Positions 15,432 through 48,585 of a stretch of DNA of 64,000 nt are shown here, one piece after another. Source of the DNA: Oopsacas minuta. Lineage: Eukaryota; Animalia; Porifera. The notes beneath the pieces were generated by a model, which saw only the letters and a list, made by a program, of their open reading frames with translations, had not been told where the DNA came from and made no database searches. Position 1 is the stretch's first letter, and every line of letters begins with the position of its first letter. A program made the position numbers and the translations under genes. Location: positions 528,121 to 592,120 of the forward strand of contig JAKMXF010000210.1 of assembly GCA_024704765.1 (NCBI GenBank), in the 5' to 3' direction.

Positions 15432-16700
15432 ATGGCTGAAGCATCTGGGCAATCAGCAAAAATAAATGGTAACAGCGTTCAGGATCATACTACAACTGAA
15501 TTGGTAGTTGTAGATAAACTAAAGAAAAGAAAAGCACCTAGAGTATTGGGTAATAAGATCCCTCAGGAGATTTTAAATGACAAGGAACTTAATGAAGCGA
15601 TCAAGGCACTGCCTTATAATTATAATTTTGAAATTCATAAGACTATTTGGCATGTCCGTAAGAATAACTCTATCTGTGTAGCTCTACAGTTTCCAGAGGG
15701 GTTGTTAATGTATGGTTGCGTCATTTCGAGTATCATACACAAATTTACTTCTGCTGAAACTTTGATATTAGGTGACGTCACTTACGGAGCATGTTGTGTT
15801 GATGATTTCACTGCCAGAGCTCTTGGAGCTGATATGCTGGTGCATTATGGTCATAGTTGTCTCATTCCTATCGATACTACTCTGATTAAGATGCTGTATG
15901 TTTTTGTTGATATCCAAATTGATATCAAACATTTTATCGAGACTGTGAAGGTCAATTTCGAACTAGGTCAAAGGCTAGCTTTGTGTGGTACAATTCAGTT
16001 TATTTCCAGCCTCCAAGCTTCCACTCAGGAGCTACAGACTGATTTTCAGATCTCCATACCTCAGGTCAAACCCTTATCTCCTGGAGAGCTACTAGGTTGT
16101 ACATCTCCTAGATTGAATCATGAGTTAGTTGATGCAATAGTATATTTAGCTGATGGAAGGTTCCATTTAGAATCCATGATGATATCAAATCCTAGTATCC
16201 CTGCTTTCATGTACAATCCTTATGATAAGAAGTTCACCAAGGAGTCTTATGACCACAGCCAAATGCAGGCATTGAGAAAGGAAGCGATTAGTTGTGCTGT
16301 GAATGCGAAAACCTTTGGAGTAATATTCGGTACTTTAGGTCGCCAGGGAAGCCATGCAATACTCAACCAGCTTATTATGCGATTGGAAAAGAACGACAAG
16401 AAATATATAGTGATTGCTCTATCTGAAATTACTCAGGAAAAATTAGATCCGTTTGAAGAGATTGATGTGTTTGTCCAAACATCTTGCCCTAGATTATCCA
16501 TTGACTGGGGCTCACAATTCAATAAACCTCTGCTAACTCCTTACGAGCTCTCTGTGGCCTTTGACACTATAAAGTGGCAGACCGTATATCCAATGGATTT
16601 CTACGCGAATGACAGTCTTGGTCCTTGGACTGTTAAAAATCAGGAAAACCGAAATATTCGACAGACTCACAAACCTAAATCATCAATTCAACCTACCTAG
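15432..16700 (+). CDS. DPH1: diphthamide biosynthesis protein 1 (2-(3-amino-3-carboxypropyl)histidine synthase subunit 1)
   Basis: Intronless ORF of 422 aa with long collinear identity to DPH1: [11 protein letters not shown]...[16 protein letters not shown]...[35 protein letters not shown]...GCTSPRL...[11 protein letters not shown]...GTLGRQGS...CPRLSIDWG...PLLTPYE...[14 protein letters not shown]. Confidence 0.9.
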
Positions 16701-16943: not shown

Positions 16944-19868
16944 TTAGTCTTTGTTCATTCTGTCTCCAAACAAGTTCACTGCCTTCTCCAGCTTGGTAAT
17001 TCTTTTATTGATATCATTTTCAACTGATACTATCTGTTCAGTTGCTCGCAGGTTTTGCCTTTCATCTCCCTCAACACGCTTAACGCAGTTGTTGATTTCC
17101 TTCAGCTGTCTATCTGTCTCATTATGGTTGGCTTGTGATTGAGCACTCAGCGTATCGATCTTCCTCGCAGCAGCAATAGTTTCTTTATCTTTATCTTCTC
17201 CATGTCCTAATTTCCTTAGTTCTTCATTTATCTCGAGTTTGTGCTTTCTCTGTTCCGACTGCACTTCATTCAACTTTAGAGCCAAATCTGCTTCTAGCGT
17301 ATCCACTTTCCTCATTAGCTCTTGTACATTTACCTCAATTTTCACGTGTGCATTCGTTACCTTGTTCACTTCAAATACCACACGATCCATCTCATCTTTT
17401 AGATCTAGTCCTCCAACCTGTGATACCTTCTGGTTTACGATTATAACTTCTTTGTGCACGTCATCAATTCGTCTGTTTGTATCATTCTGTCCCTCTGTAA
17501 GAATTTCAAGCATATCCCTCAAGGCATCAAACCTCTTGTCTAGTGCGTATATCCCAGCATTGAGGGCATCTTCTATTTGAGCAGAAATTGAATCGTGCTT
17601 ATCTCTCCCCTCCAAACACTGATCATCCTCCGCCATATACTTATCCCAATAGTAGAATGGTATGGATATTACCTCCAGGTCCTTCATCATCCTCCTTCTC
17701 ATAAAAGAGAGAATCGAGACTATAGAGCGTCTCTCGATGTGAACAATTACGTCCAGCTTGTATTGGTGTGGAAGTCCGAATGCTTCGCTGTAAGCGTGCA
17801 CGAATTGAGCATTCAGAACTCCAGCCAACAAGAGCCAGGCGAAAAACGCCAAACTTGCTAAGATTAACAATACAACGAACTTAGCACTCGTGGGACCGAC
17901 AATTGGGACTGCTAACAACGTCTGATCAAGGACAGTGAAGATACTGCCTTGAGCATTGCCTTCCAAAAAGTCGTACATTGTTTCGGAAGATTGCTGATAC
18001 TGAAGACTTGGGAAGATGGCTACATAGAATCCAAGGATTATTATGAACAGGATAAAGATTAGCTTCAGATACTGTCCTGTGAAGAGTTTTAGAATTCCCC
18101 CAGTGTATCTGCCGTGGCAAGAGAAATACATGGTAGCTTTGAAAAAACGTAGATAATTGATGAGTAGGACTATTGAGGCCAGTAAATACTGAGCCTGAGT
18201 GTTGAGGGCCCAGAAGGGAATCAGCAAAATTAGACTTACGCTGCCCAGCACATCAATAACGTTACGGATGTCACAGTAGTACACAGATATACTTTTACTA
18301 ATATTTTTCAGTTTTCGGAAAAACGCACGAATTGCTTTCCCAAACTTAAAGCAGACACCTGGACAGCAAAAACGAAGGCCTTTGTTCATCCTAAGCCAGG
18401 TTTCCTTCCTCTCTAGCTCAGAGTAAGCAGTGTATGTCGAGATGAGTTGTTCCATAACAGATACCAAGATATAACCAATAACCATTATGATCAGAAATAT
18501 TTGGCACACCAATCGGAAGAGATTTGCTGATGACTCAAATGCTGTTGCATTCGGTGCATACGCCCTATGGATGATGGTGAACGTCAAGAAGAAAAGGAAG
18601 ATGAGATAATAGATTAGGCAGAACCAAGGGTAAAAAGAGTAGACTGGGAATTTTCCATCTGCATATGCCTTGATTAGAGGATGGTTAACCAACTCAGAGG
18701 CTTTGTCAGTTGAGATACGATTCAGTAAAGTAGGTGACGTCATTGTCCAATGGTACCCGGGGATTTCTTGAGACTCTAGGATTCCAGGGCGTAGTTGTAC
18801 CTTCTTACTTCCCTGTTTCTGATCAACTTGTTTGTCAAACACGATCTTGAGTGTGTGGTAGCATTTCAGATTGTAGAGACAGTGTGCAAGGGTTGTACCT
18901 TTGAAATATCGAGTACTGAGTTGTTCTTGTAGCAGCTCGTTCGGTATTGTGTAGAGTAAATGGGCTAACATGTTGTCTTTCCCTGCTAACATCAAAACTT
19001 CTATTGCGTTCAAGTTATATGATGACATAGGTTCGAATATCTGGGACTCAATATCTGACTGGTCTAGCTGTTTCAAGAGGACAAGCATCGCTTCGTAGTT
19101 TCCATTCCACGCGGAAAGGAATAGAGCAGAGTATCCGCTACCACCAGAAGATACCTGTTCTTCTTCATCCGATTTCTCTACAACATCTCCTGTCAATTCG
19201 CTTAGCAACTTGTCATAGGATTCTAGTTTGTATCTGATAGTTGGATCACTTCCTGATTTCAGAAGGAGATTGCAAAGCAGTTCGTTTCCACTAATGCAAG
19301 CATAGGAGAATGCGTTGTGTCCATCTTGATCTACAGCATCTATTTCGGAAATTCTTGAAAGTAGGAATTTTGTAGAATTTATTTTTTCGTTCTTAACAGC
19401 TGCAATGAGTGGCGTTTGTTCGAGGTCATTTTTCTGATTCACATCTAATTGATCCTCACACTCTTCTACAAGATAGTCTATTAGCTTTAGATTATCAGAA
19501 ATAGCTGCAAAGTGTAGGAGATTATTCCCTGCAGTGTCTTTTACATCTGGGCTTAGTTTTTTGGAGTTTATGATAAGGACTACTACTTGCATATGCCCAG
19601 CTTTGGTAGCCTCTATAAGACATTCAGGTTCTAGGTCGTCTTCTCCATTTACTGCATCGCTAATTGCTGCAATCTTCCCTAGTCTAGCAGCACGAACCAA
19701 CTCGCTTTCTTGCGGCTTTTCCTCTTTTTCTTCAATGCCAATTGGGGAGGGGGTTTTCCTGTCACCGTCGAAAACCGTCTCTTGTATTTGATCTTTATCG
19801 GGTTCTCCCTTCTTATCATCATCTTCCTTAGCGGCTAGCTGTACGTATTCTTTGGATGTACTTGTCAT
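16944..19868 (-). CDS. ankyrin-repeat, multi-TM (TRP-channel-like) protein with a long C-terminal coiled coil
   Basis: Intronless ORF of 974 aa. It has N-terminal ANK repeats (GHMQVVVLIINSK..., GNNLLHFAAISDNLKLIDYLV..., QTPLIAAVKNEKINSTKFLL..., GHNAFSYACISGNELLCNLLL), a central block of about 6 hydrophobic helices, and a C-terminal heptad-rich region of roughly 200 aa. TRP-family assignment is by architecture only. Confidence 0.6.
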   Translation of the reverse strand: MTSTSKEYVQLAAKEDDDKKGEPDKDQIQETVFDGDRKTPSPIGIEEKEEKPQESELVRAARLGKIAAISDAVNGEDDLEPECLIEATKAGHMQVVVLIINSKKLSPDVKDTAGNNLLHFAAISDNLKLIDYLVEECEDQLDVNQKNDLEQTPLIAAVKNEKINSTKFLLSRISEIDAVDQDGHNAFSYACISGNELLCNLLLKSGSDPTIRYKLESYDKLLSELTGDVVEKSDEEEQVSSGGSGYSALFLSAWNGNYEAMLVLLKQLDQSDIESQIFEPMSSYNLNAIEVLMLAGKDNMLAHLLYTIPNELLQEQLSTRYFKGTTLAHCLYNLKCYHTLKIVFDKQVDQKQGSKKVQLRPGILESQEIPGYHWTMTSPTLLNRISTDKASELVNHPLIKAYADGKFPVYSFYPWFCLIYYLIFLFFLTFTIIHRAYAPNATAFESSANLFRLVCQIFLIIMVIGYILVSVMEQLISTYTAYSELERKETWLRMNKGLRFCCPGVCFKFGKAIRAFFRKLKNISKSISVYYCDIRNVIDVLGSVSLILLIPFWALNTQAQYLLASIVLLINYLRFFKATMYFSCHGRYTGGILKLFTGQYLKLIFILFIIILGFYVAIFPSLQYQQSSETMYDFLEGNAQGSIFTVLDQTLLAVPIVGPTSAKFVVLLILASLAFFAWLLLAGVLNAQFVHAYSEAFGLPHQYKLDVIVHIERRSIVSILSFMRRRMMKDLEVISIPFYYWDKYMAEDDQCLEGRDKHDSISAQIEDALNAGIYALDKRFDALRDMLEILTEGQNDTNRRIDDVHKEVIIVNQKVSQVGGLDLKDEMDRVVFEVNKVTNAHVKIEVNVQELMRKVDTLEADLALKLNEVQSEQRKHKLEINEELRKLGHGEDKDKETIAAARKIDTLSAQSQANHNETDRQLKEINNCVKRVEGDERQNLRATEQIVSVENDINKRITKLEKAVNLFGDRMNKD

Positions 19869-20729: not shown

Positions 20730-21921
20730 ATGTCTTCGAGGAATGGTATTGGTCCAAATAGGATATGCCAGTTCAAGCTGGTATTACTCGGTATGTGTAT
20801 ATTGGATTTGATTGAATGTGACGATTGTATGCTACGCTTCCTTTGTTTTGGTTAGGAGAATCAGCTGTGGGAAAATCTTCATTAGTCCTGAGGTTCGTCA
20901 AAGGGCAATTTCATGAATATCAGGAAAGTACAATTGGCGGTGAGTTCTTTTTCCTGTCACTTTTATGAATTATTTTACATAGTTATTTTGTTTTTATCTT
21001 CTTTAGCTGCCTTCTTGACGCAGACAGTTAATTCAGATGATGTGACTGTTAAATTCGAAATCTGGGATACAGCGGGCCAAGAAAATATCCTCCCAACGCG
21101 TTATTTATACTTATAGTTTACAAATATTATGATTACGTATTTAGTTTTGATGAGTTGTAGGTAAAAATGGCACCTGTACCATCCTACATAATTCAAAACT
21201 ATCACCATTTTCGTTTTCCGCTGAGATCGAAATAATATCGAAATTTGGCTAAATATATTTATTATAGTAATTGTTTGATTCTATTTTCCTAAACTCGGTG
21301 TAAGGTTCCATTCCCTCGCCCCAATGTATTACAGAGGAGCCCAAGCTGCTATCGTAGTGTACGATATCACAAATGTCGTAAGTATAAGTTTTATCTACAG
21401 CTCTGATCCTTTTTGTAATTTATCTTCCTGTGTGTTTCTATAGGATACATTCACAAGAGCGAAAAATTGGGTAAAAGAATTACAGCGTCAGGCAAACCCT
21501 GATATTGTAATCGCTTTAGCAGGGAACAAGGTAGATTTGGCAGGCAAGAGATCTGTAGAATTCACAGTAAGTAACTACCTTGATTCTATCAAACAAGTAT
21601 TTATCTCATATATTAATCCATTCTGTTTGATCACAGGACGCGCAGAGTTACGCTGACGATAACTCGCTCCTTTTCATGGAGACGTCGGCCAAGACAGCTC
21701 TTAATGTAAATGAAATGTTTGTCTCAATCGGTGAGTTCATTCGCTAGATATAATTTGAGTTATCAATAATTAAATTTAATAATTTCTTAGCAAAGAGATT
21801 ACCCAAAAATGAACCAGCACCACGACCTCCCGGTCTGAGTCAAGTGGGTGGAGCAGGCACATCATTCCCACTTCACAAAAGTGGCAAGAAATCAAAAGAA
21901 GGGTGTTGCAATAAGCAATAA
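20730..21921 (+). CDS. RAB5: Rab5 small GTPase, 7 exons, 214 aa
   Basis: Exons 20730-20790, 20856-20939, 21007-21084, 21304-21377, 21444-21566, 21637-21730 and 21791-21921. They total 645 nt, in frame. Translation: [180 protein letters not shown]...GCCNKQ. Five introns are GT-AG; intron 3 is noncanonical. Confidence 0.9.
21085..21303 (+). other. putative U12-type (minor-spliceosome) intron in Rab5 with AT..AA termini
   Basis: The 5' end ATATCCTC matches the U12 donor consensus RTATCCTT exactly where the Rab5 frame requires a splice. TTTTCCTAAAC, about 10 nt before the 3' end, matches the U12 branch consensus TCCTTAAC. Only AT(21085)...AA(21303) termini keep the conserved frame TAGQE|[13 protein letters not shown]; the adjacent AG acceptor would frameshift. 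Confidence 0.5.
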
Positions 21922-22339: not shown

Positions 22340-24040
22340 ATGAGATCATCTCTAAGACATTTCGTTCATTGGAGACCTCAGATTTACAAATATACACTCC
22401 GCTTCATAACTCAAAGCTCGCTAACTAAGGTTGATCTGGGACAATATGACAATTGCACGCTTATGGACATGCTTATTGATCCGACTACTGATCCCGGAAT
22501 TAAACCTTACGTTTATAAGGAGAGTTACTACAGAATTCCTACAATGTCTCCTTCCTATTTGTTACAGCTATTTAGAATATTTGTAGACTCGAAAGTACCA
22601 AGAAATATCTGTGGGAAGGTTGCACAGGCTATTGTTCAGAAAATAAGTTCATTTTCCCCTGAGGAAAGAATTGAAGTGCTGAATATTATATTTGATAGTA
22701 GTTCACAAATTGTGGGCTATGGTAATGTAGTTAAGTTTATTCTTAGGGAGATAAACCCCCAGCGAATCAGTCCTGTTTTCTTGCTCAATATGTGGGCCAA
22801 ATCTACAGATCGACAAGCCAGTATTCATCCATTCAAGTTAATGTATGAATTACTAAATTTTACCGTTTCAAAGCTTCACGAGTTGACAGACGCTCAATTA
22901 CTAAAAATACTATTTTATCTTCGTAGTGTTAAAATAATCGAGCCTAAAAACATCTCAGCAATGCACTCTAATATTATGACTCATCGTGGAGATAGGCATG
23001 ACGTCATGGCAGGGCTTTTATTATTCCTAATGTGCTCGTTGAGATACGATAAAGATATAATCAATTCGTATTTAAAGATACTCTATAGATCTATACAGGA
23101 AGAAAACATATCACCTGCATCTATTACTTTAGCTTCTGTTATGTCGAAACAATGTTTTATTTACCCCAAGCTTTATGAAGATCTTGAGCCCTTTGTCACT
23201 AATTTCTATCAAGATAACACGCTACACAGAACTTGTGCTTATAGCTATTTATATGCTTCAATTATTGCTGATTATTTTCCTAAGAAATTTATTCAGTTGT
23301 ATTTTACTCCTGAAAAGCTTGCTGCAATCAAAAGGGATGTTGAATGTTCTCCTTTTCTAACATCTGGCGTAGAAGTGTGTACAGTTGTTGATTATGCCAG
23401 AGTTAAAGGAGTTGACCTAGGTTTATCAAATGAGGTATTAGGATTTATTGAAAAACTAGCTTATACTTTCTGTTTAAAAGCCTGGGAGTTTCACTGCAAC
23501 GAGCTGAATCCGTGGGAGAACAGAGCTATAGCTCTAGTCGCTGAAAAATTTCCTTTGTATGTATCTTGGCCAACTAGAGCAGGTTACTTCATGGATTGTT
23601 GTATATTCTTAGATGATGATTGTAATCCTATTACCCTTGATTCATCTGCCTCTGTCCTAAAACAAAGAGATGGGACAAAGTCTAGCACTTTTGATAAATC
23701 TGGACTTGAGAACAAACCTGATCCATCTCGAGTAAATTTCGATCTTATCTGGGATCTCATGAACAATGAAGATATCCTGAAACGTATACCCAATAAGATC
23801 GTAATAGAATTCAATGGACCCCACCACTTCCTAAGGCCAACTTATTTCGAAGGGCCAATACTTAATCATTATCGTGTGGAAGGAGCAACTATGCTACGTA
23901 GAAAGTACTTGCAGGCTAGTGGATGGGAGTACATTGGCATACCATTCTTTCAATTCGAGCAGAGGTATTCCTCCTCCTCTCTCTGTGATTTCATTCTAAG
24001 ACTGGCAAAACATGCGATAAAGTACAAAAATAATTCTTAG
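22340..24040 (+). CDS. FAST-kinase-like protein with a C-terminal RAP domain (mitochondrial RNA-binding family)
   Basis: Intronless ORF of 566 aa. The C-terminus NKIVIEFNGPHHFLRPTYFEGPILNHYRVEGATMLRRKYLQASGWEYIGIPFFQF fits a RAP domain, and the upstream region is helical and repeat-like as in FASTKD proteins. Confidence 0.5.
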   Translation: MRSSLRHFVHWRPQIYKYTLRFITQSSLTKVDLGQYDNCTLMDMLIDPTTDPGIKPYVYKESYYRIPTMSPSYLLQLFRIFVDSKVPRNICGKVAQAIVQKISSFSPEERIEVLNIIFDSSSQIVGYGNVVKFILREINPQRISPVFLLNMWAKSTDRQASIHPFKLMYELLNFTVSKLHELTDAQLLKILFYLRSVKIIEPKNISAMHSNIMTHRGDRHDVMAGLLLFLMCSLRYDKDIINSYLKILYRSIQEENISPASITLASVMSKQCFIYPKLYEDLEPFVTNFYQDNTLHRTCAYSYLYASIIADYFPKKFIQLYFTPEKLAAIKRDVECSPFLTSGVEVCTVVDYARVKGVDLGLSNEVLGFIEKLAYTFCLKAWEFHCNELNPWENRAIALVAEKFPLYVSWPTRAGYFMDCCIFLDDDCNPITLDSSASVLKQRDGTKSSTFDKSGLENKPDPSRVNFDLIWDLMNNEDILKRIPNKIVIEFNGPHHFLRPTYFEGPILNHYRVEGATMLRRKYLQASGWEYIGIPFFQFEQRYSSSSLCDFILRLAKHAIKYKNNS

Positions 24041-24396: not shown

Positions 24397-26911
24397 ATGT
24401 CCTCTAAGTTTATGCACAGCCTCAAGTTATTGAGCTGTGCTTGGATTCTTCTCATTTGCTACCTGTTGACTTCTGTCTCTCACACAGCTGACACCAGCGA
24501 GGGGGCGCAGGAGCTGCCCTATGATGTAAACTATAGCTTAGATAGTCTAGAACCTGCTCTTCCAGTTATCGAAGATGAACAGGAGGATTTACAAAACTCT
24601 GTTGGGGATGAAAGTGATATCTCGAGTGATTCTAGTAATGAAATCTCTATTGAATGGAAAGTAGGATTAGATAATGGATATTTAGAACAACAGATAGTAG
24701 ATAACATAGACATAATTGAGCAAAATACAGTCAGTAATGATCCTGTTATTGACCCAAATCTCAGTGAAGAAAACACTGATTCTGATCAAAATGATTTACT
24801 GCAGCTACCAACCATGGATGAGTTTATAACTCAGAATACTAATGGTGCAATAAACACAGATCCTCTTCCTTCTGATGGCATTCAAACTCCCACAACTTCT
24901 GCAACAAACTCATTTGAACAAAATACGAAAACACACGAGACTCCTCCTAAACAGAAGAATTATGCATCAGCTGATTGTGGGGCTAAGATAGTAGCTAGGA
25001 ATCCTGAGAGCAGGAATACAGCTGGTATTCTCAATGAGAACAGAGATGATTATATGTTAAATAAGTGCTCCTTAGAATCTATTTGGGTAACTGTAGAGTT
25101 ATGTGACTATATACAAGTTCTCAGTATAGAGTTATCCGTTCATGAACTGTTCTCTTCTCTTCCAGAGAACTTCACAATGAGTCTCAGTCTTCAGGGAGGT
25201 GTCAAGCCAGATGATTGGTTACCTCCTACTCTATTCACAGCTAAGAACATTAGAGGAGATCAAATATTCCGCGTACCTACACTTGATCAGCACCACGCAC
25301 GCTTCGTAAAGCTAAATCTGGTATCTCATTACGGTAATGAGCATTACTGCCCTATCACAACACTCAGAGTGTTTGGAGCAAACTACGTAGAAGTTCTAGA
25401 AGCAATTGAGAGAGGATCTGGTACACAAGCACCTGCTGTAGAGACTTCCCTACATCTGGATAATACTGATAGCGAACTTGATGAGTTTGAAAAAGAGCAA
25501 ATATTAGAAGGAGATAAACCCAAGGAAGGCTTCTTTACCAATGCACTAGATGGTTTGTATAAATACGTTTGGCCAGAGGATGAACAGAATCCATCTGTCA
25601 ATATCAATGTAACTCAAACTAGCTCTGATAATAATACAGTTAATCCTGAAATTATCACTGATGAAGTGATCGAGGAAGAAAAAGATCCTCCACTACCAGC
25701 TGATGATTTAACTACAGAGACATTAGAAAATGAATTTATTGATAGAGAGGAATCTGTCAGTGGATTAGTTAACCTGTCAAACGTAACTGAGGACTTTAAA
25801 ATACTATTAAATGATTATTCTCCGCATTCAATGGAAACTATTGAACCAGCAAATGAAATACATCTAAATGTAGAAGCAACTATACAAGAAGACACATATG
25901 ATGATGAAGACGAACATGAAAAATACAATAACAACGAAGAGAATATCAGTAATACTCCATCTGACGATAACTCGATAGAAGATACTGTCAGCTTAGAGAC
26001 AGATGAATTACAGAGCGATGCTACTCCTAAAATAGAATTATCTCAAGGGCAAACAGTAGAAGAAGCAAATTCTATGACATCAGATAACGAGGTTGAATTA
26101 TCGGATGACTCAACACAGAATATTACAGGTAAGTTTAGTTAAGATTGGTAAACTTATTCTATTACTTTTCTAAATATGTTTAGATTCAATCCCTACTATC
26201 AGTAATGCTACACATGTAGAAAACAACTCTCTACCTGATGCTGCTTCAAATTCAACTCCTAAGGATCCCCCTATACCCAGCACACCTCCTACATCTCAGA
26301 ACTACTTGGTACGCATGCAGGAGCGAATAGCTCGACTGGGAGAGAACGTTACTATCATTCACAAATATCTTGATCAGTTCAGACACTCTATTCAGAGAAA
26401 TGTAAACCGTACAGAAGAAGTACAGCGTAGCTTGGAGAGGAAGCTCTCTCAGCTAGAAGATCTGGTTAATTTAACTTTACTCAACAGTTATATACAATCT
26501 GAAGAAGTTGAAATTACAAAAATATACTGGACAGATATAATAACCAGTCTCACATATGAAATACAATACTTTAAGGCACAATTATTGCTTTGTTTCTTAA
26601 CTACTCTTATAATAATCATTATTATAGCTGCCATATCTGTTAAACGATCTAATGCCAAACTCAGACAAGAAATGAACTCTCTTTGTAAACAACTTAATGG
26701 TGAAATTCAAAAATTATTATATATTATACAGGAAGATAGGAAGAAACTAAAGAATGGATATATTCGTAATTATGAGAATGATTATTTTGAAGGTCAACTG
26801 ACAGACCAAGGAGTTCTCTCTGATTCCAATCTAAACTCATATGTTAATCACACTGCTAAGAAGAAGAAGAAAACTCGGAAGAACTCTAACCTTGTCCTAC
26901 CCTATCCTTAA
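24397..26911 (+). CDS. SUCO: SUN-like-domain single-pass membrane protein, SUCO/Slp1 family, 2 exons, about 819 aa
   Basis: Exon 1 is 24397-26128 (donor G|GTAAGT). Exon 2 is 26184-26911 (acceptor TTTAG), after a 55 bp intron. It has a signal peptide; a SUN-like core (DCGAKIVARNPESRNTAGILNENRDDYMLNKCS...WVTVELCDYIQV...GNEHYCPITTLRVFGA); an acidic low-complexity region; then a coiled coil and TM helix (LLLCFLTTLIIIIIIAAISV) in exon 2. Confidence 0.65.
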
Positions 26912-30600: not shown

Positions 30601-33600
30601 TGGATATGATAAGAAATCAACTTCTTATATATTGTATTATATGATTTTCTTAGGCCAGCATTGGTAAGCCTAAGACAGGCTTGAAGCCACTAGCGGGTAA
30701 TGTTCATAACGGACTGAGAATTCTATACACAGAAGATGAGCCTCTAGATCTTGCTGGGGTGTGTGACGTTACCAAACCACAGACTGGAATTACGTTTTTG
30801 TGTCCGAAGAGCAGTGAAACTTCTAAACTTGATTATCCACGGTTGATTGGGGTGGATATCAGTGGATGTATATTCGAATTTGAGTGGTACACAAAGCTAG
30901 CCTGTACTGAAACAGGAACACCTGTGTCTACTCCATGTGCTTTCCAGGACCCTGTTAGTGGATTTGTATTCTCTTTATTGTCTCTAGAAGGTACAACACC
31001 AGTGAAATATGATGGTGAGTTATTTTATACAATAAAACATCATAGAAATGCCGTGAGCACTTGAATACTTGAAGCAAAGTTTCGCGAAGTTTCGTACCTG
31101 AAAGGATATGCGCAAGGGTGCTTATTCAGTCAGAAAATTAGCCACGTATGCTCGTGAATTACTTAATTAACTTTTGCTGTAAAATTGCGCAAAAAAAATG
31201 CCCACGACAGGGATCGAACCTATGACATTCGGCTTATTAGACCGACGCTCTAACCAACTGAGCTACGTAGACAAATATTATATTTTAATTCTAATTCAAA
31301 ACTTTGTTAGTTGTCTTTCCAGTTCATCTAGACAAAAAGACTGCCCCCGACAGGGCTCGAACCTGTGACCTTGGGCTTATTAGACCCACGCTCTAACCGA
31401 CTGAGCTACGAGGGCAGATAATATTCCTTTCCAATTCACCAATTTTTATATCATGTTACAATTACACCCTTTCTATAGAGAATACAAACGCTGACTCTCC
31501 TTTCTTCTACCTATCTATATGCTCTACTATTGACTCAGATCTCCTTCAATCTTCTATAAACCCAAAGTCTGGGGCTGTTCTTCTTTACCCAAATACTGTA
31601 TCTGATGCTAAGAACTCGAGTTTAGGAGAAGCTAACTCAAACCTGTTGTACAGTGATAGTGAGCTAATACAGCTCAGATACATTGAAGGAAGTGCATGTT
31701 CAAGTGGCAAGGTTATGTATTAATGTTCACTTCCTTCATGAATACAATTGTTATTATTCTTATCGTTTTTCAGAAATCAACTCTAATCACCTTTGTGTGT
31801 TCACATCTTATAGCCTCGAGTGTGTCTTACATTAGCTCTCTGCCATCAGATGACACCTGTCTATTTGAGTTTGAATACAAGACAATCCTTGCTTGTCCTC
31901 CCATCACAACAGAATGTGTCATAACTTCTAATGATGGACAATTGTATGATCTTACCAGACTGAAGCAACTCTCTGGGACCGGGTTCCCTGTCTATATTTC
32001 TGGCCAGTATAGCGATATACCTCAATTATCTTCTCTACGAATTTCGGTGAGCAATGTTTAGCATACTACCGTTAGATATTCTACAATAGTTACGAGTGTA
32101 TGCATTAGATATGTCAACCATTGGAAGCTGGTAGTACCGAAACATGTACTAATGGATCTGCATCTTGTCTGAGCTATGACAATCATATATTCGATCTGGG
32201 ACATGTAACAGGAGACCTACAGCTGAGTCAGCAGGGAGAACTCCAGCTGATATACTCAGGAGGTACAGGTTGTAGTAAGAGCGCGCTTACAGTGATAACT
32301 TTTCGGTGTGATCGTAGTGTTGGAGTTGGACAGCCTCTTCTTAGTCTACATAGGAACACGAGTGGGTCTTGTTACTATGATATTGTTTGGGACTCTGAGT
32401 ATGCTTGTGCAGTATTACCCAGTGAGGAATCTAACTGTGCTGTGACAGATACAGATTCAGGTATTATACAAATATTATAGAATGTTGTGAGGTGATGATC
32501 TAAATACTTTTTCGGATTCTATATACATACTCTGAACTTATAAATATTTTCCATTAACCTGTCAAGGTAATTGAGTTATTCATTACTACTATACTGGCTT
32601 GAAACCTGTTATCTTTAGATATGTTATTACAAGATTTTACAACATCCTCTTATCTTACATATTCTTCTAGGATTTGTATATAACTTTACAAGTTTGAGTA
32701 AATTACCAGATATACACATACAACCTGACTCTACAGTTACCTCAGATGATTACAGCTTCACTATCTCTATTTGTCGTCCTATAACATCATCATGTGGAGA
32801 TGGTAGTGCTCATGCAGGAGCTTGTCAATATTCTGATAACACCCAGCATGTTACAGGTAAGATAACCTTATTACCATGACAGATATAGAATTATATTTGT
32901 GTTATTATGTAGGATTATATAGCTCTACACTTATACTGAGTGATGGAGAAGTTCAGCTGGTATATTCTGGGGGTCAAGCATGTCATAGTAACAATGTTAA
33001 CAGAACAACAATAATACGTTTCTATTGTGACAAGACAGCAACTTCTCCTCGAGCTGTAGTACTACCTGAATTGACACATTGTCTCTATGAAATTATGCTA
33101 TATACTAATCTAGCTTGTCCTCCTAGCCAACCTACGTTCAAATGCAATGCTAACAATCCTGATAACGGAAACACTTACGATCTGTCTAGCTTACAACACA
33201 AAGCTTATTTTGAAGTATACTCTACAGATAGTATTGTGTACTACTTTAGTGTTTGTAACCTTCTACCTTCTCAATATGGTAATAAGGGTGTACACTGTGT
33301 TACTGGTTCTAGCTTCTGTGTGTTACATAAGAACAGCAATAATGTGAGTATTTACTAAGTAGACTGTATCGTTAATAGAATGATGGTTACTAGTTTGTAT
33401 TGTAGATATGGAAAGCTACTAATCTCGGTACAATGACACACTCCCCTTACCTACTACGGGATAATCTTCTCCTACTCTCCTACTCAACTGAGGATGCGAA
33501 ATATAACACTACCGTGGGATTAGAGTGTTCTGAAGAGTCACAATCGGTTACAGATCCAATTCTTGTTTATCATAGTGCTGACTTTTCTACGAATATATTC

Positions 33601-36424: not shown

Positions 36425-37660
36425 ATGCTAGCCGAAATATACCTTTATACTATACATCGAGAGGTTGTCATGTCCTTAACTTTGAAGCAAATTTGTCAAA
36501 TCTATTATATTGCTTTCCTCCTATCTTATTCTATGAGAGTTTCCTGTGAATTCATCCCCCCATCTAATCAGATATGTATGGACGAATCTATTACTTTTGA
36601 TTGTTTACTTACTGGAACTTTTCCAACTGTACAATTATTTGTCCTCAATAATACAACAATCAATTTATTTCAATTAAATAATATTGATAGTTTCTTCGGG
36701 ATAGATCTAACCCGTCTAAGTGCTACAGTTGATAATACTCTAGATCAGAATACAGGTCTGTACACATTACTCCGTGCTAACATTACACTTGTAAATATTA
36801 CAAAGGGAGATAATGGTACACTGATAGGATGTACTGCAACTACTTCTGGTAATGTTTTACTGGAAGATTCAGATACTCTTTATCTAGCTTCTCCTCCTTC
36901 TGAACTTGACATTATATTATCCCCTATACCCTCTAATTGTAGTGTTAAAGTATCATGGACTTATCCTATACAGTCTACTCTACCTATAACTGAAGAGATT
37001 ACAGATTCTGTTACTAACATTATTACTTATGATCGGGTATATTTCTCGAACTTCCTAACAGCTGGACAAGATTATACTTACACTTTAACTACCAGCAACT
37101 GTTTAGGAGACTCTATAACAGCTGATACTCAGCTGTTCTCTCTTCCTTCTCAACCTGATGCTTACACCTGTTCTGCTAAATATGGGTCTGAAAATAGAAT
37201 ACTAGTTTTACAGCTGTTTGGCTATACTTCTGAGTATGCTATTGAGACTAGTTTTACATTATCTGAAGACAGTGATAATACCATTAATTTGTCTGATACT
37301 TTTACTGAACCACGTTACTATTCTAAACAGATGTTTAATCTACCATCAACAAGAAACTATACAGTTATGTTTACATCTATATTGAGAGATTGTATTAGAT
37401 CCCTGCAAACAACTTGTGAAACCAAACTTAATATTACTGCTAGAGTTACACCAAATCCCTCCCCTCCTCCCTTAACGAATACATTCGTAACCACCAGTCC
37501 TTCCACATGTAATTATATTCTCAATACCAATGACTTTAGTATATTTAATGCAATGTTCTGGGTTAGTATCATTGGGTCGATTTTGCTGTGTTTCCTCAAT
37601 ATTACCGTTTGTATTAGTTTTATTTTAATCTGTCTGAACCAATTTAGACTGGTGTTTTGA
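36425..37660 (+). CDS. Ig-like/FN3-like single-pass glycoprotein, paralogue A (short tail)
   Basis: ORF of 411 aa; the likely real start is the in-frame Met at 36470 (MSLTLKQICQIYYIAFLLSYSMRVSCEF, signal-peptide-like). The Ig-like module is ITFDC...DNGTLIGC (a D.G.Y.C-like motif). The FN3-like module is PSNCSVKVSWTYP...YTYTLTTSNCLGDS. There are more than 15 N-x-S/T sites, a C-terminal TM helix and a very short tail. Outside two variable patches it is over 90% identical in nucleotides to copies B and C. Confidence 0.55.
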   Translation: MLAEIYLYTIHREVVMSLTLKQICQIYYIAFLLSYSMRVSCEFIPPSNQICMDESITFDCLLTGTFPTVQLFVLNNTTINLFQLNNIDSFFGIDLTRLSATVDNTLDQNTGLYTLLRANITLVNITKGDNGTLIGCTATTSGNVLLEDSDTLYLASPPSELDIILSPIPSNCSVKVSWTYPIQSTLPITEEITDSVTNIITYDRVYFSNFLTAGQDYTYTLTTSNCLGDSITADTQLFSLPSQPDAYTCSAKYGSENRILVLQLFGYTSEYAIETSFTLSEDSDNTINLSDTFTEPRYYSKQMFNLPSTRNYTVMFTSILRDCIRSLQTTCETKLNITARVTPNPSPPPLTNTFVTTSPSTCNYILNTNDFSIFNAMFWVSIIGSILLCFLNITVCISFILICLNQFRLVF

Positions 37661-37767
37661 TACGTTTGTATATTTTGAGCATTTTAAAGCTATCTTTGTA
37701 TTATAATTTCAGCTAATCAATTGAATTGAATATATTTAATGAGTGACTTATATATTTAGCTTTTCCA

Positions 37768-39117
37768 ATGAATAACCTACTCTTACTTCTACTCTTATTA
37801 TCCCTCTTGCTATGTTATATGAGAGTTTCCTGTGAATTCATCCCTCCATCTAATCAGATATGTATGGACGAATCTATTACTTTTGATTGTTTACTTCCTG
37901 GAACTTTTCCAACTATACAATTATTTGTCATCAATAATACAACAGTCAATTTATTTCAAATAAATAATATTGATAGTTTCTTCGGGATAGATCTAACCCG
38001 TCTAAGTGCTACAGTTGATAATGCTCTAGATCAGAATACAGGTCTGTACACAGTACTCCGTGCTAACATTACACTTGTAAATATTACAAAGGGAGATAAT
38101 GGTACACTGATAGGATGTACTGCAACTACTTCTGGTAATGTTTTACTGGAAGATTCAGATACTCTTTATCTAGCTTCTCCTCCTTCTGAACCTGACATTA
38201 TATTATCCCCTATACCCTCTAATTGTAGTGTTAAAGTATCATGGACTTATCCTATACAGTCTACTCTACCTATAACTGAAGAGATTACAGATTCTGTTAC
38301 TAACATTATTACTTATGATCGGGTATATTTCTCGAACTTCCTAACAGCTGGACAAGATTATACTTACACTTTAACTTCCAGCAACTGTTTAGGAGACTCT
38401 ATAACAGCTGATACTCAGCTGTTCTCTCTTCCTTCTCAACCTGATGCTTACACCTGTTCTGCTGAATATGGGTCTGAAAATAGAATGCTAGTTTTACAGC
38501 TGTTGGGCTATACTTCTGAGTATGCTATTGAGACTAGTTTTACTTTATCTGAAGACAGTGATAATACCACTAATTTGTCTGATACTTTTACTGAACCACG
38601 TTACTATTCTAAACAGATGTTTGATCTACCATCAACAAGAAACTATACAGTTGTGTTTACATCTGTATTGAGAGATTGTATTGGATCCCTGCAAACAACT
38701 TGTGAAGCCAAACTTATTATTACTGGTATAGTTACACCAACTTCCCCCCCTATTCCAACACCTACTCCCTCCATGACTATTCCAACTCAGAGTCCACAGG
38801 ATTACCTAGTATACATCATAATAGCAGTAGTTCTCTTCCTACTGTTATTATTCCTATCTTTTGTTATAATCTTGCTTACTTGTCTACTAAACAGAGGGAA
38901 AATATTCAGAAATAGAACTTCTCCTCAGAATGCTAAGGGTTTTTCTAAGCGGGTTGCAGCTCCCGCGAAAATCTCTGATTCAAATGAAAACGGGGATGAG
39001 CTAAATTACCTAAAACCAGAATTTGGTTCCAATCCTAAGAAACCTAATGCTCCTATCCCTAAGACTCTGTATGCAGATATTAAGCATATGCCTTCTGACT
39101 ACGCTACCCTACAGTAG
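37768..39117 (+). CDS. Ig-like/FN3-like single-pass glycoprotein, paralogue B, with an ITAM-like cytoplasmic tail
   Basis: ORF of 449 aa. The signal peptide is MNNLLLLLLLLSLLLCYMRVSC and the ectodomain matches A. A Pro/Thr-rich stalk is followed by the TM helix YLVYIIIAVVLFLLLLFLSFVIILLTCLL. The tail ends ...LNYLKPEF...KTLYADIKHMPSDYATLQ. The segment YADI-x6-YATL matches the canonical ITAM YxxI/L-x(6-8)-YxxL, and SDYATL also fits an ITIM-like pattern. Confidence 0.75.
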   Translation: MNNLLLLLLLLSLLLCYMRVSCEFIPPSNQICMDESITFDCLLPGTFPTIQLFVINNTTVNLFQINNIDSFFGIDLTRLSATVDNALDQNTGLYTVLRANITLVNITKGDNGTLIGCTATTSGNVLLEDSDTLYLASPPSEPDIILSPIPSNCSVKVSWTYPIQSTLPITEEITDSVTNIITYDRVYFSNFLTAGQDYTYTLTSSNCLGDSITADTQLFSLPSQPDAYTCSAEYGSENRMLVLQLLGYTSEYAIETSFTLSEDSDNTTNLSDTFTEPRYYSKQMFDLPSTRNYTVVFTSVLRDCIGSLQTTCEAKLIITGIVTPTSPPIPTPTPSMTIPTQSPQDYLVYIIIAVVLFLLLLFLSFVIILLTCLLNRGKIFRNRTSPQNAKGFSKRVAAPAKISDSNENGDELNYLKPEFGSNPKKPNAPIPKTLYADIKHMPSDYATLQ

Positions 39118-39420
39118 TTATGCCTTTGTACTTGTTAGTGGTTTTATTCTTATCTAAGGTATTAATTCAGCTTAAATCTAATCCTGCTGGTATGACCTAT
39201 TAGTAATTATCCTCCCCCTTCTCTACTAAATGGATTTATATTGAATTGTTTATTTCTTTACTTTCTTTGTATAATATCTAGTGAACTGTTTACCTTATAT
39301 AACTTGTATGTATAGGATATGTAGTATTTGTTTGTTGTTTTGTTTACTTTATAATAATCATACTATCCAGAATTATTTGCACAACCAAACAATTCATATC
39401 TTCGTTCATTTTCTTACTAG

Positions 39421-39540
39421 TTAGCTATGGCTAGCACTACATGTCCACATGTAACTAACCAAGGTCTAGAGATGGATCTTGGTAACTTATCGGCTACTGA
39501 CATAGATTTCCATCTAACTAATGAGGGAGGCTGTGTTTCC
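39421..39540 (+). pseudogene. duplicated 5' fragment of RRS1 (ATG plus 39 codons), fused at the duplication junction to copy-A tail sequence
   Basis: Segment 39421-39540 is near-identical to 41101-41220 (MASTTCPHVTNQGLEMDLGNLSATDIDFHLTNEGG). It then reads into CVSSILPFVLVLF stop, a 48-codon chimeric ORF. Confidence 0.7.
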
Positions 39541-39711
39541 TCAATATTACCGTTTGTATTAGTTTTATTTTAATCTGTCTGAACCAATTTAGACTCGTGT
39601 TTTGATACGTTTGTATATTTTGAGCATTTTAAAGCTATCTTTGTATTATAATTTTAGCTAATCAATTGAATTGAATATATTTATGACTGATTTATTTATT
39701 TAGCTATTCAA

Positions 39712-40680
39712 ATGAATAACTTACTCTTACTTCTACTCTTATTATCCCTCTTGCTATGTTATATGAGAGTTTCCTGTGAATTCATCCCTCCATCTAATCA
39801 GATATGTATGGACGAATCTATTACTTTTGATTGTTTACTTCCTGGAACTTTTCTGCTTGTACAAGTATTTATCGTCAATTCTACACTAGTCAATTTATTT
39901 CAAATAAATAATATTGATAGTTTCTTCGGGATAGATCTAACCCGTCTAAGTGCTACAGTTGATAATACTCTAGATCAGAATACAGGTCTGTACACAGTAC
40001 TCCGTGCTAACATTACACTTATTGATATTACCAAGGAAGATAATGGTACACTGATAGGATGTCAAGCGACTAATTCTGATAATGATTTAATTGAAGTTTC
40101 AGATACTCTTTATCTAGCTTCTCCTCCTGAACTTGACATTATATTATCCCCTATACCCTCTAATTGTAGTGTTAAAGTATCATGGACTTATCCTATACAG
40201 TCCACTCTACCTATAACTGAAGAGATTACAGATTCTGTTACTAACATTATTACTTATGATCGGGTATATTTCTCGAACTTCCTAACAGCTGGACAAGATT
40301 ATACTTACACTTTAACTTCCAGCAACTGTTTAGGAGACTCTATAACAGCTGATACTCAGCTGTTCTCTCTTCCTTCTCAACCTGATGCTTACACCTGTTC
40401 TGCTGAATATGGGTCTGAAAATAGAATGCTAGTTTTACAGCTGTTGGGCTATACTTCTGAGTATGCTATTGAGACTAGTTTTACTTTATCTGAAGACAGT
40501 GATAATACCACTAATTTGTCTGATACTTTTACTGAACCACGTTACTATTCTAAACAGATGTTTGATCTACCATCAACAAGAAACTATACAGTTGTGTTTA
40601 CATCTATATTGAGAAATTGTATTGGATCCCTGCAAACAACTTGTGAAACCAAACTTAATATTACTGCTTTAGTTCTATGA
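39712..40680 (+). CDS. Ig-like/FN3-like glycoprotein, paralogue C: truncated before the TM helix, either a secreted form or a young pseudogene
   Basis: ORF of 322 aa with the same signal peptide as B. Local indels near 40655-40680 create a stop (...CETKLNITALVL stop). Downstream remnants of the TM and tail are readable in other frames (LPYYLTYIIIAVVLYAF stop; ...MPSDYATLQ stop at 40780-40806). Relative to B, about 260 bp covering the TM helix and most of the tail are deleted. Confidence 0.55.
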   Translation: MNNLLLLLLLLSLLLCYMRVSCEFIPPSNQICMDESITFDCLLPGTFLLVQVFIVNSTLVNLFQINNIDSFFGIDLTRLSATVDNTLDQNTGLYTVLRANITLIDITKEDNGTLIGCQATNSDNDLIEVSDTLYLASPPELDIILSPIPSNCSVKVSWTYPIQSTLPITEEITDSVTNIITYDRVYFSNFLTAGQDYTYTLTSSNCLGDSITADTQLFSLPSQPDAYTCSAEYGSENRMLVLQLLGYTSEYAIETSFTLSEDSDNTTNLSDTFTEPRYYSKQMFDLPSTRNYTVVFTSILRNCIGSLQTTCETKLNITALVL

Positions 40681-42481: not shown

Positions 42482-44209
42482 ATGTGGCTGTTTGACAGGT
42501 TTGTGCTATTCCGCGCGTTCTCATTGCGAGGGTTTCTCAATGATCTCCCGAGATACATTTTCGTGACTTTATGGATGCTTACGAATATCGGCCTATTTAT
42601 TGGGTTCTTTGTGCAATTTGAAACGTTCCCTCGATATTTCTACTTCCGTATGATTAGCCGTCAGGGTCTATCGTTTGCAAGAGCTCCTGCTGCTGTTATT
42701 AACTTCAACTCTATGCTTATTCTATTACCGGTGTGTCGGAATTTAATCTCGATTATCCGTGGAACATGTTTTCGTTGCTCTCGTAGTCTACGGAAAGCTC
42801 TTGACAAGAACATCAGTTACCACAAGCTATTTGCTTGGACTATCATTTTCTGCTCAGTCATACACACTGCTGCACATTATTACAACTACGAGTTTATCAT
42901 AACTGATGCTGCCAGTCCACAACGCTTCGAACAAGTTCCTTCTAATCCCCTAAGGAACAATCCTCTTATCTATCTTCGTCTGTTAGAGAATAGGTCTCTC
43001 GTCCTACCTCTTGATGCAGTCCTCTTAAACTACATGACGTATGCAGGTATAACAGGTCACATAATGTGGCTTATACTATTTCTAATGGCAACTTCTTCTG
43101 TTGAAGTTATACGTAAGAGTTTCTTCGAAATATTCTGGTATACTCATCACCTGTTTATTTTCTATTTTATTGCGCTTGGTATCCATCAGTTTCAAATGAT
43201 ACTTCCATTTCAATCCAATGTGGATGTGAGTGATCCTTTCAACTGCTCTAGATTACCTGTGGATACTACAGGTGAAGGGTGTGAAATATTGCCTACCTTT
43301 ACCGCTGCTCGCCCTAGTTCCTATAAATGGTTTGTTATCCCACTAGCTATCTATCTTGTAGAGCGATTGATCCGATTCATAAAGAGCCTTATTCCTGTAC
43401 AGATTGTTCATGTAGAAGAACATCCTTCTAGAACACTTGAGATTCGTATGAAACGTAGGTTCTTCCGTCAGGATGTAGGTCAGTATGTGTTCGTTAATAT
43501 TCCATCCATCAGCTTTCTAGAGTGGCACCCTTTCACACTCACTTCCTGTCCAGAGGACAATCCAGAATTCAGTGTCCACATCAGAATTGTAGGAGATTGG
43601 ACAGAAGCCCTGCTTAAGAAAGTTAGACAGAAGGGATCTAATGTTCGTAGCACTATAATTACTATTGATGGCCCTTTTGGTACAGCAAGTGAAGATGTGT
43701 TTGATTATGAGATAGCTATGCTGGTAGGAGCTGGTATCGGTGTAACTCCTTTCGCTTCTATTCTGAAATCGATTTATCATAAACGTAAGAATATGAACCT
43801 TAAGAAATTATCTCAGATATATTTCTTCTGGGTGTGCCCACAGCCTCAGTCATTTGAATGGTTTGCTACTCTCCTCAAAACGATTGAGAAATCTCTCCAA
43901 GATGAAGGTTGTCCAGATCTCATTAAGTATGAGATTTATCTAACTCGTGGATGGACTGCAGCGGAAGCACGAAATATCTACCTCCATGAGGACGACATTG
44001 AAGATCCGATCACCCGTTTGGGAGCTAAGACTAACTACGGACGACCTAAATGGGATGAGATATTCGCTACCATTGCTGAAAATCACTCTAAAAAGAAGGT
44101 GGGTGTGTTCTTCTGTGGACCGCCTATACTTTCAAAAGAACTACACTTCCAAGCTAACAAACACTCTACCAATAACTGTAGCTTTTCTTATAACAAAGAG
44201 AATTTCTAG
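42482..44209 (+). CDS. NOX: NADPH oxidase (NOX1-4 type catalytic subunit, no EF hands)
   Basis: Intronless ORF of 575 aa. It has a six-TM ferric-reductase domain with paired His residues; the FAD-binding HPFTLTS; the NADPH-binding GIGVTPFASILKS; and a C-terminal FFCGPP. There is no N-terminal EF-hand or peroxidase domain. Confidence 0.85.
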   Translation: MWLFDRFVLFRAFSLRGFLNDLPRYIFVTLWMLTNIGLFIGFFVQFETFPRYFYFRMISRQGLSFARAPAAVINFNSMLILLPVCRNLISIIRGTCFRCSRSLRKALDKNISYHKLFAWTIIFCSVIHTAAHYYNYEFIITDAASPQRFEQVPSNPLRNNPLIYLRLLENRSLVLPLDAVLLNYMTYAGITGHIMWLILFLMATSSVEVIRKSFFEIFWYTHHLFIFYFIALGIHQFQMILPFQSNVDVSDPFNCSRLPVDTTGEGCEILPTFTAARPSSYKWFVIPLAIYLVERLIRFIKSLIPVQIVHVEEHPSRTLEIRMKRRFFRQDVGQYVFVNIPSISFLEWHPFTLTSCPEDNPEFSVHIRIVGDWTEALLKKVRQKGSNVRSTIITIDGPFGTASEDVFDYEIAMLVGAGIGVTPFASILKSIYHKRKNMNLKKLSQIYFFWVCPQPQSFEWFATLLKTIEKSLQDEGCPDLIKYEIYLTRGWTAAEARNIYLHEDDIEDPITRLGAKTNYGRPKWDEIFATIAENHSKKKVGVFFCGPPILSKELHFQANKHSTNNCSFSYNKENF

Positions 44210-47700: not shown

Positions 47701-48585
47701 CATAAAATAGTCTATGAGTTAGTTAGTAAGCTAAAATCTATTAATGAGATTATGACTACATCTCAAATACTCTGTGAGTATACACAGGATTATGAAGATG
47801 CTATCTTCCTACTGATAGAGAACAATATATTTAATGAGGCATACAGACTTATATACAAATACTTACGGATAGATTTGCTGGAAACTCACTTCAAACCGAA
47901 GTTAACAGAAACTGCACAGAACATGCTTTCTATGCTAATCGAGTCTAGAACAATTGTAGAGAAGTATGTTAGTAGACTTGAAATAGTTTTGACAAACAAA
48001 CTTGAGGAAGGACAGACTTATTTTGAGGAGGGAGGTGACATAAGGGATCACGAGTTCTTTTCAGAGCAGAGCAGCGTAACAGGACAGTCTCAAACAAACT
48101 CTATAAGTTCTAAAGGTTCTAAGAGTAGCTCTAAATCTGCTAGAGGCAGTAGGAGTAGAAAGAAGCAAGAAAGGAAAAAGTATAGATTGAAGGAAGGGAG
48201 TGCTCATGAAGATATAGCTCTATTGGAAGAGATAAGGGGGGTAGTAGTCAGAGTTGATCAGATACAAGATGATTTGAATATTATTTTAGATCTGTTAATA
48301 ATAACGAATCAACGACTATTAGCACGAGACCTACAAACAAATGCTCGTGCTACCATCACCTATCTTGCTTCTATTATTCCCAAGACATGGCATAAACATA
48401 GACTAATAACAATATCTCTCTCATTAGTTCATGAGGATGGAATCATATCCAGTCCTAACCTGTGTACTGGTATTATAAATGTGTTAAAAGGAGGAGATTT
48501 ATTTCCAGCACAGACAGATGTAGAAATATCAGAACCATTAATTCGCAGTATAAAATGGGAGATTAGCTATCTATTGAGTTCATAG
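44710..48585 (+). CDS. ELP1: Elongator complex protein 1 (IKI3/IKBKAP family)
   Basis: Intronless ORF of 1291 aa. The N-terminus MRNLQLF... and the WD-propeller block with ICWRGDGQFFAISF match the ELP1 motif ISWRGDGQ(F/Y)FAVS. The C-terminal half is long and alpha-helical, and there is a basic Ser/Lys-rich patch (SKGSKSSSKSARGSRSRKKQERKKYR). Confidence 0.85.
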   Translation: MRNLQLFSCGSYHLLRGIFAIDADTGDIWLISDSLKLFCYKELGKTCKEHVNLSLEANLESSNAVISLDYVLDLESVYFALRNGDIYKFSVESDELDNIGSVACGLECAVWSPDQEIIVLVSTEGKVVMLSKNCDPISESNLLTGEFGEASPIVLGWGKRETQFKGKAGKYVDLKDKDSQESVNILTSDDRKVRICWRGDGQFFAISFVNISKGLREIKIFTRECVLHATSESVAGIGQSLSWKPSANLITTNRTSHRQEIVFFEKNGLRYGEFSLPCHVTEYFVREVEWNSNSTILLVLLEPLISDTKTLVQLWTCNNAHWYLKQEICFPSVSSPTLIRWNTIQPNTLHILTQSGSYLTYELRTVVTQSNEYDNWIAVIDGCRVLLSPFRDLTVPPPMSSCSVELSRPVIEVIFGREEYKDRILCLLSNYTIIELKHSKSDGNINNSEFLDKTGFYSLSKPFHFRDNTTDISYHTIRHIQWITVYLLLALSYSSDAKEHKIELYNILSEEREIVLVSVVTTIKPILTLISCSDSLAVEFIDGEVNRVSCTNETLSLQPWVNLLYPSHRISIARFSGEEHILGFTVNGRLFLDTIELCSNATSYYLHSHFLLITTSSHYLHSINLSTPIYELPAILPTQSHTTNDAVRRVERGAEIITAVSNDSKVVLQMPRGNLEAIHPRALILTIIAKLLDNREYSVAFAILRRQRINMNLFHDYNPEIFISSIHDFITQVHQPQFLNIFITELSDQDICTTMYPNMKRHVTNINSENKVNSVCDIMVETCEKANNTNLYLLPILTALIKRSPSQLGEVLTRIKNIPVTSKTSQEDALKYISLLIDMKQLYKVALGTYDFDIMLLVAQNSNMDPKEYLPFMNNLKSLEENYRAYFIDCHLCKYESALVHILKCRGREEECIAFINKHELYSKALEQIPTGDGELIQRVSLAYGNWLCSKEKYPEAGLVFIQIGELALALKAYRKSDNYHRVLSLALQLNLPKDSFHKIVYELVSKLKSINEIMTTSQILCEYTQDYEDAIFLLIENNIFNEAYRLIYKYLRIDLLETHFKPKLTETAQNMLSMLIESRTIVEKYVSRLEIVLTNKLEEGQTYFEEGGDIRDHEFFSEQSSVTGQSQTNSISSKGSKSSSKSARGSRSRKKQERKKYRLKEGSAHEDIALLEEIRGVVVRVDQIQDDLNIILDLLIITNQRLLARDLQTNARATITYLASIIPKTWHKHRLITISLSLVHEDGIISSPNLCTGIINVLKGGDLFPAQTDVEISEPLIRSIKWEISYLLSS

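Follow-up and report, generated by a model that had tools for sequence, protein, structure and literature searches.

A Rab5 intron with AT-AA termini in the glass sponge Oopsacas minuta is very probably of the U12 type

The window analyzed here, a 64-kb stretch of DNA, comes from Oopsacas minuta, a glass sponge (Hexactinellida). It contains a Rab5 gene on the + strand, which runs from the ATG at 20730 to the stop codon ending at 21921 and is composed of seven exons and six introns. The exons of the spliced coding sequence are located at 20730-20790, 20856-20939, 21007-21084, 21304-21377, 21444-21566, 21637-21730 and 21791-21921. Once spliced, the coding sequence is 645 nt long including the stop codon and encodes 214 amino acids. 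The G-motifs are all present in the translation, including GNKxD and ETSAK, and the protein ends in a CCxxx prenylation box (CCNKQ). It is 74-88% identical to proteins named Rab-5A, Rab-5B or Rab-5C that carry the Pfam Ras domain (PF00071). Introns 1, 2, 4, 5 and 6 are all GT-AG introns of 59-70 nt. Intron 3 (21085-21303, + strand) is 219 nt long; its first two bases are AT and its last two are AA. A first-pass annotation of this DNA, made from the letters alone, had proposed that the exon sum of 645 nt and 214 aa with a CCxxx end is obtained with this intron removed, and splicing together with the five flanking GT-AG introns bears this out.

Five open reading frames (ORFs) of the window exactly match Oopsacas minuta proteins encoded on a single contig of 722,285 bp, namely KAI6655202 (DPH1), KAI6655206, KAI6655212, KAI6655213 (ELP1) and KAI6655214 (cyclin B3). 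Single uninterrupted ORFs are found at 15432-16700 (DPH1), 16944-19868 on the minus strand (an ankyrin protein of 974 aa), 22340-24040 (a RAP-domain protein), 24397-26142 (a SUN-domain protein), 42482-44209 (a NOX-like reductase), 44710-48585 (ELP1, 1291 aa), 49781-50776 (cyclin B3) and 57498-60344 (INTS7, 948 aa). The Oopsacas genome is compact (PMC10280926). Among these single-ORF neighbors, Rab5 keeps six introns in a coding sequence of 645 nt, which makes intron retention in this compact genome very uneven. The genome had been called intron-poor from the window; this holds for the neighboring genes, many of which are single ORFs, but not for Rab5 with its six introns. Two adjacent tRNA genes, at 31199-31272 and 31342-31415 (minus strand; 63 and 70 bits), are the sole Rfam matches at gathering level in the window. 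At 36425-40680 (+ strand), three consecutive ORFs of 411, 449 and 322 aa are present without a Pfam match. Identical short segments recur in this region at approximately 37072, 38358 and 40299, and again at 38394 and 40335. The region thus seems to hold a gene family of unknown function that arose by tandem duplication.

In GenBank, the Rab5 gene appears as two proteins. KAI6655204.1 ("Rab5 protein", 84 aa) comprises exons 1-3 and 10 residues that are read through from intron 3 to the first stop. KAI6655205.1 ("Ras-related protein Rab-5C", 133 aa) is the remainder of the gene from Met82. The full 214-aa Oopsacas Rab5 is absent from the protein collection. Since intron 3 is not a GT-AG intron, the public annotation split one Rab5 gene in two.

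Exon 3 ends in GGCCAAGAAA at 21084 and exon 4 starts with GGTTCCATTCC at 21304. Intron 3 is a phase 1 intron, located inside the Arg codon of DTAGQE-R. It opens with ATATCCTCCC. The 5' splice site, ATATCCTCC (21085-21093, + strand), is a donor of the U11/U6atac type. Its octamer ATATCCTC (21085-21092) matches the consensus RTATCCTT at 7/8 positions; position 8 is C, where the consensus has T. The branch-site motif TTTTCCTAAAC (21284-21294, + strand) ends 9 nt before the end of the intron. Within it, the octamer TCCTAAAC (21287-21294) has one mismatch against the branch consensus (TCCTTAAC or TCCTTRAY). The likely branch A is at 21292/21293, which is 10-11 nt before the end of the intron; in U12 introns the branch-site consensus is expected at roughly 10-20 nt from this end. 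The nine bases after the branch block are TCGGTGTAA, and the last two of them are the terminal AA (21302-21303, + strand). The exon then continues with GG. On re-inspection of the sequence, the coordinates and motifs of the first-pass annotation were all found as claimed, although it had described the 5' splice-site motif as perfect, a slight overstatement. The signals are of the U12 type, but the donor and the branch site each depart from the consensus at one position.

The Rab5 frame is kept solely with boundaries at 21085-21303 or with their equivalents at a distance of 1-2 nt. No GT-AG pair restores the frame and rescues the protein, as had been stated from the sequence. Shifting the two boundaries upstream by 1 nt or by 2 nt (AA-TA or AA-GT) leaves the mRNA unchanged. 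The AT-AA termini thus preserve the frame, as proposed, but not as the one exact solution. Because the shifted boundaries yield the same mRNA, the assignment to AT-AA rests on the donor motif and on homology with AT-AC orthologues (see below). An AG is observed at 21303-21304, one base downstream of the AA. It is out of frame; the earlier expectation that this AG would shift the frame was correct, and its use would give a truncated product.

How far such signals could arise by chance was estimated within the window. RTATCCTY has 8 matches across the 64 kb against 13 expected, so there is no enrichment. Motif frequencies in the window give a rough probability of approximately 7e-6 for the two signals to coincide, with an RTATCCT donor at any of the three offsets allowed and a branch-like octamer 6-14 nt from the 3' end. 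The significance of the intron 3 signals comes from their position. Conservation in relatives is far stronger evidence, and it settles the question. A loose scan of the window for donor-plus-branch pairs returned, besides Rab5 intron 3, pairs without coding context. One further candidate donor, ATATCCTT at 12904, lies 46 nt upstream of a Sen54-like ORF and was rejected for want of a plausible acceptor. Rfam found no minor-spliceosome snRNAs in the 64-kb window and approximately 72 kb of five related loci, the latter being free of Rfam matches of any kind, a result that says nothing on whole genomes.

The relatives were reached via the neighboring single-exon RAP-domain gene (22340-24040), for which six homologues with 51-61% identity were found on large ENA contigs. 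Five distinct syntenic loci were compared (L007, L008, L009, L011 and L012); L010 has the same sequence as L009. The gene order DPH1, ankyrin gene, Rab5, RAP gene, SUN gene is common to all five. In each of them, Rab5 is interrupted by intron 3 at the same site, with a length of 143-275 nt. The donor ATATCCTCC is invariant in the six glass-sponge species (Oopsacas and the five relatives). The branch block is TTTTCCTTAAC in the five relatives, an exact match to the consensus that includes the octamer TTCCTTAAC, and TTTTCCTAAAC in Oopsacas. The number of bases after the branch block is always nine. In the relatives these are GCGGTGTAA, GCGTCGTAA or GCGCTGCAA. The 7 nt before the terminal AA vary, and the AA itself is invariant (6/6 species). 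It is followed by GG in all six, so the adjacent AG is always present. The interior of the intron is barely alignable among the six species (alignment A1). In the Vazella-like introns an inverted repeat of 10-12 bp, AACCAGGGGC...GCCTCTGGTT, is found in the interior (L007 4895-4960, L009 4905-4975) with an imperfect version in L008. This could be a local hairpin or what is left of an inserted element.

The U2-type introns 1, 5 and 6 of the same genes served as a control. In intron 3, 10/14 positions at the 5' end and 17/28 at the 3' end are invariant in the six species, against 5-6/14 and 4-5/28 in the control introns. After removal of the AT-AA intron and the five GT-AG introns, the six genes encode intact proteins, 212-214 aa in length and with 92-99% identity. 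The deep lineages differ from one another at 48-64% of third codon positions and at 1-6% of first and second positions. Third positions have thus diverged and the other two have been kept, and both halves of Rab5 are therefore under purifying selection. Judged from this comparison, intron 3 must be removed in frame, and its signals have stayed unchanged although the neutral background is close to saturation.

Transcript-level support comes from the sister species Vazella pourtalesii. When the AT-AA intron (L007 4846-5060) is removed from Rab5 at this locus, the product is identical at 213/213 residues to P0122, a Vazella pourtalesii protein deduced from a transcriptome assembled de novo with Trinity (EukProt EP00800). 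P0122 does not originate from a genome annotation. It is thus independent evidence that in the sister species the mRNA joins ...CAAGAAA to GGTTCC.... The match supports the AT-AA junction at the transcript level, and we infer removal of the intron in Oopsacas itself. Vazella also has a second transcript isoform, whose protein P0001 (207 aa) begins differently (MPVQTGPISLLWLG...); some of this N-terminus is read-through from the 3' end of Vazella intron 1 (L007 4566-4626). This suggests an alternative first exon or acceptor.

Outside the glass sponges, the other five intron positions match those in Rab5 of Amphimedon, Nematostella, Acanthaster and mammalian RAB5C where introns are present there. 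The intron 3 site differs. The Rab5 genes of these four animals have a single uninterrupted exon across DTAGQERYHSLAP, whereas glass sponges and Oscarella retain an extra minor intron there. Intron 3 is absent from Rab5 of Amphimedon (a demosponge), Nematostella, the starfish Acanthaster and from mammalian RAB5C. These absences suggested a gain specific to the glass-sponge lineage. Such a gain is ruled out by an AT-AC orthologue in Oscarella and by metagenomic Rab5 genes. In Oscarella lobularis (Homoscleromorpha), a 76-nt AT-AC intron is found at the same site and in the same phase (L004 894-969). It reads gaaa/ATATCCTCTTTT...TTATTCCTTAACTTTCTTCTCTCGCAC/gatatcac (slashes mark the splice sites), with the donor ATATCCTC, which is also that of the glass sponges, and the branch motif TTCCTTAAC. 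By its signals, this is a textbook AT-AC U12 intron.

Metagenome contigs were scanned for DTAGQE codons followed by one base and then RTATCCT. The scan gave 16 loci (L013-L028), of which 15 belong to the Rab5 family and fall into four sequence groups. In all four groups, which come from at least four eukaryotes, ATATCCTT occupies the intron 3 site. The intron can be read from end to end in three groups (L013, 238 nt; L016, 141 nt; L015, 66 nt), and in all three it ends in AC. In the fourth group (L021), which has an animal-type Rab5, the contig stops inside the intron. The branch motif of the L015 intron is TTTTCCATAAC. The L015 protein is closest to Rab-5A of Balamuthia mandrillaris (78%) and other amoebozoan-like sequences. 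In L013 and L016, the best match to TCCTTAAC is 36-51 nt from the AC end, which is unusually far for a U12 intron; closer but weaker branch candidates are present in L013. Orthologous U12 introns are thus found in Oscarella and in the metagenomic lineages. The simplest reading of this distribution is that a U12 intron has occupied the intron 3 site since before animals and would have been lost in many animal lineages. Likewise, the sampled glass sponges would most simply descend from an ancestor in which the last base of the intron went from C to A, and would have kept this A since.

Taken together, we conclude with high confidence that intron 3 of Oopsacas Rab5 (21085-21303) is real and belongs to the U12-type (minor-spliceosome) introns, AT-AA subtype. 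The U12-type reading of the first-pass annotation is upheld by signals that are invariant in six glass-sponge genomes, by the Vazella junction and by AT-AC orthologues at the same codon phase. The intron belongs to an already known class and was previously unannotated; it is not a new kind of element. With U12-type introns of the AT-AC class it shares the ATATCCT donor and a TTCCT(T/A)AAC branch block 10-11 nt from the 3' end. It is in phase 1, is longer than the neighboring U2-type introns and is orthologous to canonical AT-AC introns. It differs from that class in its last base (A, not C), in donor position 8 (C, not T) and, in Oopsacas, in one mismatch of the branch motif.

AT-AA is a documented U12 subtype, with 3 human, 4 mouse and 1 Arabidopsis introns (PMC1557818 Table 2). 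[quoted passage not shown] The AT-AA introns of human and mouse RASGRP4 and of human MSH3 have the same terminal pair (PMC1557818). MSH3 has AT-AA in human and AT-AC in mouse (PMC1557818), the same kind of subtype switch as in Rab5 intron 3. The difference is that the glass-sponge AA is fixed in six sampled genomes from at least four deep lineages, and is not a contrast within a single species pair. In the literature searched, no report links Rab5 to U12-type introns, and none discusses U12 introns in sponges or minor splicing in Hexactinellida. The Oopsacas genome paper (PMC10280926) mentions neither U12, nor splicing, nor Rab5.

The way in which this intron is spliced can be proposed from its signals. 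In U12 splicing, U11 and later U6atac pair with ATATCCT, and U12 pairs with the TTTTCCT...AAC block. The 3' site is selected mainly by its nearness to the branch point. Since the 3' site is set mainly by this distance, termini other than AC or AG are tolerated in U12 introns. In Oopsacas Rab5, the donor ATATCCTCC would be recognized by U11 and then by U6atac, and the block TTTTCCTAAAC would pair with U12 snRNA, bulging the branch adenosine. The T-to-A change in the Oopsacas branch motif would leave seven contiguous bases (TTTTCCT) for this pairing, if the branch-recognition sequence of U12 is the one that other animals have. The 3' site would be chosen by the short distance of 10-11 nt from the branch point and not by YAG. 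Splicing would then join GAA-A to GG-TTC, and the codon AGG (Arg) of DTAGQER would be restored. The AG one base past the AA could compete, giving a frameshifted transcript. Intron 3 would thus depend on the minor spliceosome, and a functional minor spliceosome is to be expected in the Oopsacas genome.

The interior of intron 3 contains an arrangement that resembles a box C/D snoRNA (21138-21234, + strand). It is made up of a stem TATTTAGTTT, a C box (TGATGA, 21148-21153), a D box (CTGA, 21221-21224) and a stem GATCGAAATA. A U12-type intron that also hosts such a snoRNA would explain why intron 3 is threefold longer than its neighbors. The flanks pair at 8/10 positions, and the arrangement, on the sense strand, is the sole C/D-like match in the 128 kb searched (window), against 0.095 expected in shuffles, with thresholds that were set post hoc, when the candidate had already been seen. 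Approximately 58 nt separate its end from the branch site, as is typical of C/D snoRNAs located in introns. However, the C and D boxes are absent from the aligned intron 3 of the five relatives, which are also long. There is no Rfam sense-strand match for 21138-21234 at E<=10, and the terminal stem is not formed in the minimum-energy fold. We therefore regard a hosted snoRNA as unlikely. The arrangement is either species-specific or due to chance, and probably the latter.

Other searches of the intron for known elements were also negative. For intron 3 as a whole, known RNAs in Rfam (E<=10) gave matches at chance level, the best being an antisense snoRNA model with E=2.8. A mobile or repeated insertion was considered and rejected, as blastn against the window gave short AT-rich matches alone and no second copy. 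Terminal inverted repeats were not seen by eye.

Assignment of intron 3 to the minor spliceosome has to be weighed against removal by the major one. Termini alone do not assign the spliceosome, since both process some non-canonical termini (PMC10639083), and a T-rich stretch is located upstream of the intron 3 end. That the major (U2-type) spliceosome removes this non-canonical intron, as it does the rare U2-type AT-AC introns, is nevertheless very improbable. The donor ATATCCTCC is the U12-class consensus, unlike the GTAAGT, GTGAGT and GTATGT donors of the same gene. Across the six species, exactly 9 nt separate the consensus branch block from the 3' end, and the orthologues are textbook AT-AC U12 introns.

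A further reading accepts the U12 type and takes the AG at 21303-21304 as the main 3' site in Oopsacas. Most of the transcript would then be frameshifted and non-productive, with AT-AA used in a minority. AT-AG introns, too, are on record among those of the U12 type (PMC1557818 Table 2), the AG is within the permitted distance from the branch, and AA is followed by GG in all six species. The AG is conserved beside the AA because of the Arg codon AGG. A frameshift at this point truncates the product, yet the downstream exons are strongly conserved, and the assembled Vazella transcript has the in-frame junction. We consider predominant use of this AG highly unlikely. That there is no intron at all, and that the locus holds two separate or broken genes (an 84-aa N-terminal product reading into the 219 nt and a 133-aa product from Met82), is scarcely credible even though GenBank has exactly these proteins, KAI6655204.1 and KAI6655205.1: neither fragment would be a complete GTPase because the G1-G3 and G4-G5 motifs would be separated, purifying selection acts equally on the two halves in six species, the Vazella transcript encodes a continuous 213-aa protein, and the 10 read-through residues stem from non-conserved intron sequence.

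With intron 3 taken as a U12-type AT-AA intron, a wider possibility concerns glass sponges as a class, whose minor spliceosome might have altered or relaxed 3'-site recognition. The idea arises because AT-AA replaced AT-AC and is invariant across deep lineages beside a competing out-of-frame AG. We consider it unlikely. If it were true, and if the same bias were found in other glass-sponge minor introns, it would amount to a lineage-specific change in U12 3'-site choice.

The finding corrects the public record for a core endocytosis gene. Oopsacas Rab5 was deposited as fragments of 84 and 133 aa because the annotation pipeline disallowed a non-GT-AG intron. In a genome noted above all for lacking core metazoan genes, gene models broken up by minor introns contribute, to a small but real extent, false losses or truncations. 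The analysis also identifies an old minor intron in Rab5 and dates its switch from AT-AC to AT-AA. Two classes of sponges share this intron with one more animal-like lineage and an amoebozoan-like one; a demosponge, a cnidarian, an echinoderm and a mammal have lost it. It therefore offers a clean marker for studying how minor introns are lost and how they switch subtype. For the Hexactinellida, it provides strong indirect support that minor splicing has been retained, in genomes where many genes have lost all of their introns.
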